From a virus: a stretch of 10,155 nt of DNA. Position numbers: made by a program. Below are positions 9,001 to 10,155 of this stretch, piece after piece. The number at the start of each line of letters is the position of its first letter. The stretch's first letter is position 1. Location: UHGV virus genome UHGV-0264998, one strand, 5' to 3'.

Positions 9001-10155
9001 CGCATAACATAACACTCTGAAATCAATACAAAAGCTGTAGGCCACCCATCACCCATAGCCCAGTAACGGCCAGTGCTGGCACCTAATCAGGCTGTAGGTT
9101 GTCACTCTGTAACGCTGGCGGTCAGCTCGCGTTTGATACGGTAGAACGTTGCCCGGCTTATCCCGGCAGCTTTCATGATGTGCTCTGGTTTATTCCCAAC
9201 GGTAAGCATAGCGCGGACAGTTTCACGGGCGCTCTCATCCTTAGACTTTCCGTTATATTTCCCCTCTGCTTTGGCACGCTCGATGCCCTGCGCTTGGCGT
9301 GCTCTGCGTGTCTCATAGTCCACTCGTGCCATCGTAGCGAGGATATCGATCAGCATTGCGTTAACGGCTCTTAGAATGCCCTCTGTAAGCTCTGACGAGG
9401 TATCGCTCAGTAGCTGCCATGAGGTTGGCAGGTCAACGGCAACGATCACCAGCCCCTTATCCTGAATCCTCTGTTTCAGTGTCGCCCATTCCTTTTGCGT
9501 CAATCGGCTTAGCCTGTCGATGCTCTCGACAAGCAAGACCTCTCCGGCCTCTGCATCATCCAACAGGCGCATCAGTTCAGGGCGAGCCAGCCTTGCACCG
9601 CTGGCATTCTCGATGTACTCCGCCCGTACAGGCCAGCCCCGATCACTGGCGAACTCTCGCAGCAAGCCCAGCGCCCGGTCTGCGTGTTGCTCTGCTGTAC
9701 TGGCGCGGCAATAGATAAGCGCATTGTGTGCCATGCTTCCCCTCCTAAGTCTCAATGAAATACCACAGCAAGATCTATAAGAGATCACATCAACAATGTG
9801 TAGTCAATAGAGTTTTATAGATAGTCAAATGAGACAGCGTATCTATGTCTTTATCAGGTATACCCGGATGAGACAGAGACAGCCAGCGGCAGACTGGCAC
9901 CGAGTCACAGCAAAACCCCGGCGCACCCAGCGAACGCAGCGCAAAGCGCACACAGGAGATCAGCACGGCACCGCCACGATCTCGAAATCACAAAGGCGTT
10001 GAATCAAACATTGCAACCGCAGCAGTAACCAGCCAGCATTTCGCGCCTGCAACGGTTGCCTCGGATGAGCAAAATCTTAGGGTTTTCTCAGCGACCCCTG
10101 ACGCGCGGGCACGCACATGTGCACGGGGGCGCGGGCGAGCTATAGAGTTGAGGGA

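Follow-up and report, generated by a model that had tools for sequence, protein, structure and literature searches.

A small serine recombinase gene in a capsid-encoding island

The DNA analysed here (UHGV virus genome UHGV-0264998; 10,155 nucleotides, referred to as the window) carries on its minus strand a gene for a small serine recombinase (9102–9734, ATG at 9732–9734), and a Shine-Dalgarno sequence, AGGAGG, can be read off the same strand at 9741–9746, 6 nt before the start codon. The open reading frame specifies 210 amino acids, and the assignment to the serine recombinases made in an earlier, sequence-only reading of the window is confirmed by an N-terminal catalytic domain (Pfam Resolvase, PF00239, residues 5–160, E = 4e-25) and a C-terminal DNA-binding domain (HTH_7, PF02796, residues 171–203, E = 4.7e-5). 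Residues Y8, R10, S12, D73, R74 and R77 are invariant among 28 homologues and align with Y6, R8, S10, D67, R68 and R71 of gamma-delta resolvase; domains and catalytic residues together place the protein among the small serine recombinases of the resolvase/invertase superfamily. Its N terminus, MAHNALIY, is the common start among its homologues. With both domains present and the catalytic residues intact and invariant, the enzyme appears to be active. The other open reading frames of the window, when scanned, contained no recombinase domain, in agreement with the earlier claim that this recombinase is the only one; the tyrosine integrase of the island in which it resides is located outside the window.

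Databases offer little guidance on the name of this protein. None of the NCBIfam models reaches its cut-off, the best PHROG match is PHROG 125, named 'DNA invertase', and several sources label the homologues 'Pin-like'. Solved relatives are distant, the best being Sin (PDB 2r0q, E = 2.8e-12), with gamma-delta resolvase at E = 4e-8 (phmmer), and no solved Hin or Gin structure matches at E <= 1e-3. Several other classes were considered and rejected. Large serine integrases have 400–700 aa and carry recombinase and zinc-ribbon domains, whereas the window protein has 210 aa with Resolvase and HTH_7 only. Against the NCBIfam model for IS607-family transposases the protein reaches 41.5 bits, short of the cut-off of 110, and the match is confined to the catalytic part; moreover, those enzymes have an N-terminal MerR-like helix-turn-helix (HTH), whereas the HTH here is C-terminal. 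A Tn3-family TnpR would be accompanied by a Tn3-type transposase and 38-bp terminal inverted repeats, but there is no transposase among the neighbours, which are genes for a RecQ-like helicase, a capsid protein, HNH and EndoVII nucleases and the tyrosine integrase.

The recombinase family is common on plasmids, with at least 5000 records in PLSDB that include a 5.8-kb plasmid and IncF plasmids. Members of the same subfamily (49–69% identity) are carried by plasmids of Enterobacter, Erwinia, Vibrio and Pseudomonas, and Enterobacter IncF plasmids carry a homologue that shares 69% identity with the window recombinase; another gene, with the annotation 'parA plasmid stabilization protein, resolvase', shares 39%. 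The 69%-identical homologue is found on Enterobacter mcr-10 IncF plasmids (L096 and L099–L101), where it adjoins a cation-diffusion-facilitator gene and IS elements.

The window itself represents most of an island of roughly 14.7 kb (L001, 12793–27626), which in relatives from E. coli and Enterobacter is integrated at tRNA-Leu(CAA) or tRNA-Gly(CCC). Its ends are 31-bp direct repeats of the tRNA 3' end, with the tyrosine integrase at the far end. The island genes in the window all lie on the minus strand and include those for an EndoVII-like nuclease, an HNH nuclease, a capsid protein (PHROG 267) and a RecQ-like helicase, the last separated from the recombinase gene by a non-coding gap of 1.2 kb. 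The capsid protein is 55–57% identical to capsids of lytic Escherichia and Enterobacter podophages of about 42 kb (Lidtsur, glasur). No portal or terminase gene was identified in the island, and a near-identity search of the window against phage genomes gave no match. The gene content fits none of the P4, PICI, cfPICI and PLE gene sets, and the island may be an undescribed satellite type; our literature search found no description of either the island type or this resolvase subfamily. The capsid-encoding island is probably more novel than its resolvase and res site.

Several further observations concern the island. The longest open reading frames for the HNH nuclease (1193–1768) and the capsid (1719–2759) overlap by 50 bp; relatives are annotated with shorter genes, of 510 bp and 996 bp, so that translation probably begins inside both frames. 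A P4-like satellite is the neighbour of this island in L092. Sister or other leuX islands hold different small serine recombinases in the slot occupied by the window gene (L003, 14798–15479; L002, 3273–3940); that of L003 is 26% identical to the window enzyme and 47% identical to that of L002. Each has its own upstream repeats, GGTGTCATCAAT occurring twice and TTTTCTGGCA three times, and about 106 bp upstream of the gene both continue into the same outer flank.

A predicted three-subsite res site upstream of the gene

Directly upstream of the recombinase gene lies a conserved, predicted res site of 126 bp (9749–9874), a type of site at which plasmids and transposons separate joined DNA circles. 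Copies of one half-site, GTCTCAATAGGGT, spaced at constant offsets, make up its three dyad subsites. Subsite I (9847–9874, minus strand), the predicted crossover site, is a 28-bp dyad, GTCTCATCCGGGT-AT-ACCTGATAAAGAC, with the core GGTATACC at 9857–9864 and its central AT at 9860–9861. The accessory subsite II (9801–9835, minus strand) measures 35 bp and was placed by the half-site offsets in 18 loci; its arms are GTCTCATTTGACT (9823–9835, minus-strand reading) and TAGTCAATAGAGT (9801–9813, plus-strand reading). The accessory subsite III (9749–9787, minus strand), of about 39 bp, was placed by the half-site offsets in relatives together with the alignment. Its right arm is GTCTCAATGAAAT (9749–9761) and its left arm, at about 9775–9787, is degenerate. 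The layout therefore reads I 28-(11)-II 35-(13)-III 39; the ribosome-binding site and the ATG come next, and subsite I is the one farthest from the gene.

Taken by themselves, the half-sites in the window are weak, matching at 9–10 of 13 positions, and a consensus scan restricted to the window and allowing up to 3 mismatches recovered 1 half-site, which is not above chance. We retrieved 80 loci encoding relatives of the recombinase and aligned 300 bp of upstream DNA for the closest 16 (63–97% protein identity). GGTATACC is invariant in the 16 aligned regions, and more conserved blocks run on from it to the start codon. Analysis of half-site offsets in 18 related loci (63–100% protein identity) located GTCTCAATAGGGT relative to the core centre at -14 (+) and +1 (-) for subsite I, at +25 (+) and +46/47 (-) for subsite II, and at +73 to +75 (+) and +97 to +99 (-) for subsite III, and the density of matches within the site was 22.6 times that in the rest of these loci. 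A crossover dyad accompanied by differently spaced accessory dyads beside the gene, the arrangement of a multi-subsite res, was thus found across the 18 loci. Relatives have a clean inverted repeat at subsite II, TCAATAGGGT-N8-ACCCTATTGA, with 10 bp perfectly repeated; in the lineage of the window the arms of this subsite can also be read as direct repeats.

The core extends well beyond the closest relatives. With at most one mismatch it is present in 50 of the 80 loci, as against 42 of 1502 control windows (2.8%), mostly 116–147 bp from the Tyr8 codon, or about 120–145 bp upstream of the gene. It is retained down to 47% protein identity, many such homologues being plasmid-borne, and at 47–54% identity the half-sites vary by lineage while a GGGTAT(A/G)CC-like core stays. 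The loci examined have one crossover-type site each. No second copy of subsite I was found in the window, in the complete island (L001) or within 10 kb on either side in six relatives, where the next best 28-mers match at 17–19 of 28 positions. A locus with one such site lacks the pair that inversion or excision would need.

In the relative L010 a promoter, TTGACT-16-TATCAT, extends over subsites II to III; no sigma-70-like promoter was found in the res region of the window or in L089. No Rfam family matched anywhere in the window at E <= 1.

The sequence-only reading had anticipated a res-type site set from a series of repeats and palindromes. A site of this type upstream of the gene is supported, but most of the motifs then listed were the wrong ones, the real site being the GGTATACC-centred dyad together with GTCTCAATAGGGT. 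The 12-bp direct repeats are real (TAGTCAATAGAG at 9801–9812 and TAGTCAAATGAG at 9822–9833), with starts 21 bp apart rather than the 31 bp (9801–9843) originally given. They are the only listed motif above chance (2 found where 0.08 are expected; none of 200 shuffles has as many) and correspond to the arms of subsite II, which also contains the first copy of the 8-mer ATAGAGTT. That copy is located at 9807–9814, not at 9817 as thought, and the second is at 10142–10149 as reported; two copies compare with 0.14 expected, a count reached by 2 of 200 shuffles, and the second sits in flanking DNA that in relatives also adjoins unrelated recombinases. The inverted repeat GATCT-ataag-AGATC is indeed present at 9772–9786, where it overlaps the left arm of subsite III, and inverted repeats with 5-bp arms number 3 in 9735–10155 against 2.0 expected. 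The palindrome GCACATGTGC at 10113–10122 and the two copies of TTGTACATGTA at 8654 and 8742 likewise exist as described. Perfect 10-bp palindromes occur 7 times in the window and about 12 times in shuffles, and the ACATGT core that had been noted as shared is at chance frequency (3 observed, 2.3 expected). Most of the listed motifs are either no commoner than chance predicts or unconnected with the enzyme; two of them, the 12-mers and the GATCT repeat, fall within res.

Two lineages meet at the res core

Sequence comparison revealed that the window is a natural recombinant at the res core, where two lineages meet. On the inner side, from the core towards the gene, 750 of 750 positions are identical to L089, one of six contigs that encode a recombinase identical to that of the window; the outer side has no match to L089. 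Conversely, the outer side is identical at 293 of 295 positions (99.3%) to L007 from Enterobacter bugandensis, the inner side of which is only 76% identical. The last L007-type diagnostic base lies at -5 from the core centre and the first L089-type base at +5, which places the exchange inside GGGTATACC, so that the natural junction locates the crossover no more closely than to 9 bp. When inner clades a and b are combined with outer types X and Y, all four combinations are found, and the gene and about 150 bp of upstream DNA travel as one module. Homology to the window stops at 9881 for L001, L004 and L005 and at 9892–9893 for L006 and L008. A 27-mer across the hybrid junction had 0 matches in JGI metagenome contigs and no identical hybrid was present in complete E. 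coli genomes; the junction is known from this window only. In a comparison of four plasmids from Enterobacter or uncultured bacteria for more hybrid junctions, three Enterobacter plasmids share upstream genes by annotation.

No other single result of this analysis is as informative as the natural hybrid at the crossover core. Res sites are known breakpoints in the mosaic evolution of Tn21-type transposons, and the natural chimera indicates that they can serve as such in the mosaic evolution of tRNA-integrated islands.

The outer flank, which belongs to the different lineage (9875–10155; 99.3% identical to L007), lies outside the res site and holds GCACATGTGC and the second ATAGAGTT. Its terminal part, the last 114 bp of the window, is 97% identical to DNA beside unrelated recombinases in about 90 E. 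coli genomes. Further out, relatives have a variable cargo slot, 285 to about 1900 bp outside subsite I (L089–L094, L001 and L004), between a conserved 285–410 bp beside res and a conserved stretch of roughly 620 bp beside the tRNA. Its contents are Rap1a, a 304-aa open reading frame, or DUF3800 with hypothetical genes. We considered res as the direct edge of the variable cargo and rejected this, the variation beginning 285–410 bp from subsite I.

Repeats on the far side of the gene

Both copies of TTGTACATGTA belong to an 88-nt tandem duplication (8596–8771) with copies 72% identical. Each unit consists of a short hairpin and a T-run, then TGTACATGTA. The relatives examined have one 88-nt copy each, and an insertion comprising the second unit and about 20 further bases sets the window apart. 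L003, with a recombinase of only 26% identity, retains the first copy of TTGTACATGTA, and the second is missing from every relative aligned.

Between this duplication and the recombinase gene, the non-coding block 8830–8965 is 91–100% conserved in most island relatives and was undetected in L008 and L097. Its alignment on the minus strand reveals a long hairpin, CTCGATGTG...ACATCGAG, in which two base pairs have compensatory changes in L003 and L005. The block may be a structured RNA or an origin element.

Alternative explanations

The earlier reading had also raised the possibility that the palindromes are inversion sites flanking the gene. In such a DNA invertase switch, inverted sites around the gene would flip a 0.9-kb segment in the manner of the Salmonella Hin H segment, an explanation that we regard as extremely improbable. 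The candidate sites are the ACATGT palindromes or a 20-nt inverted repeat (8881–8900 / 9781–9800) that is 75% complementary and brackets the gene, and the PHROG 125 match, with its name 'DNA invertase', would agree with such a switch. However, the left arm of the inverted repeat falls in the block 8830–8965, which is conserved in L003 beside a 26%-identical recombinase and has its own explanation as a covarying hairpin; because this arm is conserved next to an unrelated recombinase, we rejected the two arms as a hix-like pair. ACATGT occurs at chance frequency, the flank DNA around GCACATGTGC also occurs in E. coli islands beside unrelated recombinases, and the second TTGTACATGTA copy is found in this window alone. 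The site with the conserved core is single per locus, and the absence of Hin or Gin among the solved structures matched at E <= 1e-3 also argues against an invertase. We compared orientations directly: a search with the whole window hit one place per genome, and one with 7900–10155 hit 159 places in 158 records. Among 148–158 matching E. coli genomes there were no opposite-strand pieces, inverted copies or alternative orientations of the DNA. With a single site per locus, flanking repeats that are not specific to the recombinase and no inverted isomers in these genomes, a Hin/Gin/Cin/Pin-type invertase was rejected, and on these sequence comparisons the locus is not an inversion switch.

Three other explanations bear on the upstream site. 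The probability that its pattern is due to chance, with no functional site, is negligible: most of the motifs first listed do occur at or under chance frequency in the window, but position-specific conservation over 80 loci from many genera refutes this explanation. We consider it quite unlikely that the site acts as operator and promoter only, the protein being a domesticated DNA-binding regulator or autoregulator that has lost recombination. Although the motifs of relatives overlap a good promoter, and conservation by itself cannot tell binding from catalysis, all catalytic residues are invariant across the family and the junction of the natural chimera falls inside the 9-bp core; moreover, the dyad farthest from the gene is built like a crossover site, 28 bp long around a palindromic central AT, and at about 60 bp upstream of the promoter it would be of little use as an operator. 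A small serine integrase or excisionase, which would recombine subsite I with a dissimilar partner site and so move the tRNA-proximal cargo or the island, is highly unlikely. Ralstonia phage phiRSM has a resolvase-type integrase, and the DNA outside subsite I does vary among near-identical islands, with Rap1a, the 304-aa open reading frame or DUF3800 as cargo. Yet this variation starts 285–410 bp from subsite I, between conserved flanks, which fits homologous exchange, and the island has a tyrosine integrase of its own as well as the 31-bp repeats of the tRNA 3' end. The searches found no second site, close homologues reside on plasmids that lack such a context, and three accessory-type subsites, a hallmark of resolution systems, point to resolution instead.

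Predicted function and implications

We interpret the gene as a small serine resolvase and the upstream 126 bp (9749–9874) as its cognate res, a reading that we hold, from sequence comparison, with a probability of about 0.8. Dimers of the recombinase would bind the three dyads I, II and III, as the conserved half-sites suggest, and strand exchange would take place in subsite I at the central AT of GGTATACC, the predicted exchange dinucleotide. By analogy with Tn3 and gamma-delta, the accessory subsites II and III would restrict recombination to pairs of res sites in direct repeat on the same molecule. The recombinase probably also represses its own transcription through subsites II and III, because these cover the region of the promoter in relatives.

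Since each island has one res, the enzyme would act on islands that have excised and replicated to dimers or multimers, or on related islands joined in tandem or as cointegrates, and resolution would convert these to monomers. Where the partner islands differ, hybrid islands like that of the window would arise. The most likely role is thus the resolution of multimers or tandem copies of the island. This is supported by the prevalence of the subfamily on plasmids, by the 39% match to a 'plasmid stabilization protein, resolvase' and by the unrelated small serine recombinases in the same slot of sister islands, which are expected of an interchangeable resolution module. It suggests that the island family has a plasmid-like replicative phase with a need for multimer resolution.

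A more speculative and, in our judgement, doubtful extension is that the resolvase and res form a site-specific reassortment point of a family of capsid-encoding islands not described before, which may be satellites of lytic podophages. If this were true, exchange at subsite I between tandem or co-resident islands would swap the tRNA-proximal accessory end against the body that carries replication and capsid genes, and would create new island chimeras like the window at an evolutionarily relevant rate.

For a widespread, unnamed subfamily, present on thousands of plasmids and in many islands of Enterobacterales, the analysis provides a concrete, testable predicted res site, and it corrects the generic 'invertase' and 'Pin-like' labels of these proteins. 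The general understanding of serine recombinases is unchanged by these results.

Comparison with known systems

The invertases Hin, Gin and Pin share the superfamily and a similar size with the window recombinase, and its homologues carry the 'Pin-like' label. They differ in that the window locus has one crossover site and no inverted pair of 26-bp sites, has accessory subsites in place of an enhancer, and has relatives without orientation variants. The ParA or 'plasmid stabilization resolvase' group resembles it through the 39% identity to a gene so annotated and through a single res beside the gene, as compared at the level of annotation and identity; the window copy differs in residing in a chromosomally integrated, capsid-encoding island.

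Sin, from Staphylococcus plasmids (PDB 2r0q), is the best solved relative and is likewise distinguished by an extra segment between the catalytic core and helix E. It functions in plasmid multimer resolution (PMC9943657), and of the two subsites of its res, subsite II contains direct repeats (PMC9943657, PMC2428073). At the window locus there are instead three dyads, and subsite II of relatives is a clear inverted repeat. A Sin/beta-type arrangement, with a two-subsite res, a direct-repeat subsite II and a host bending protein in the gap, was therefore rejected in favour of the three dyads found.

In the Tn3 and gamma-delta systems, res precedes the resolvase gene, and subsite I is its gene-distal part. 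The Tn3-type res is about 120 bp long and binds three dimers at differently spaced subsites, with a 22-bp linker between I and II and with subsite III as the shortest subsite (PMC9943657). The window differs in its spacing, 28-(11)-35-(13)-39 as against that 22-bp linker and short subsite III, in the low similarity of its protein (to gamma-delta, phmmer E = 4e-8), in having no Tn3-type transposase or terminal inverted repeats nearby, and in its host, a tRNA-integrated island, with homologues on plasmids. The likeness is nevertheless extensive: a small serine recombinase whose catalytic domain is N-terminal and whose HTH is C-terminal; a res directly upstream of the gene, with subsite I farthest and subsite III nearest; three dyads, here predicted to bind dimers, with unequal internal spacers; a 28-bp subsite I whose central AT is palindromic and whose arms have GTCT at their outer ends; a total length of about 120–126 bp; and natural hybrids at the crossover site.
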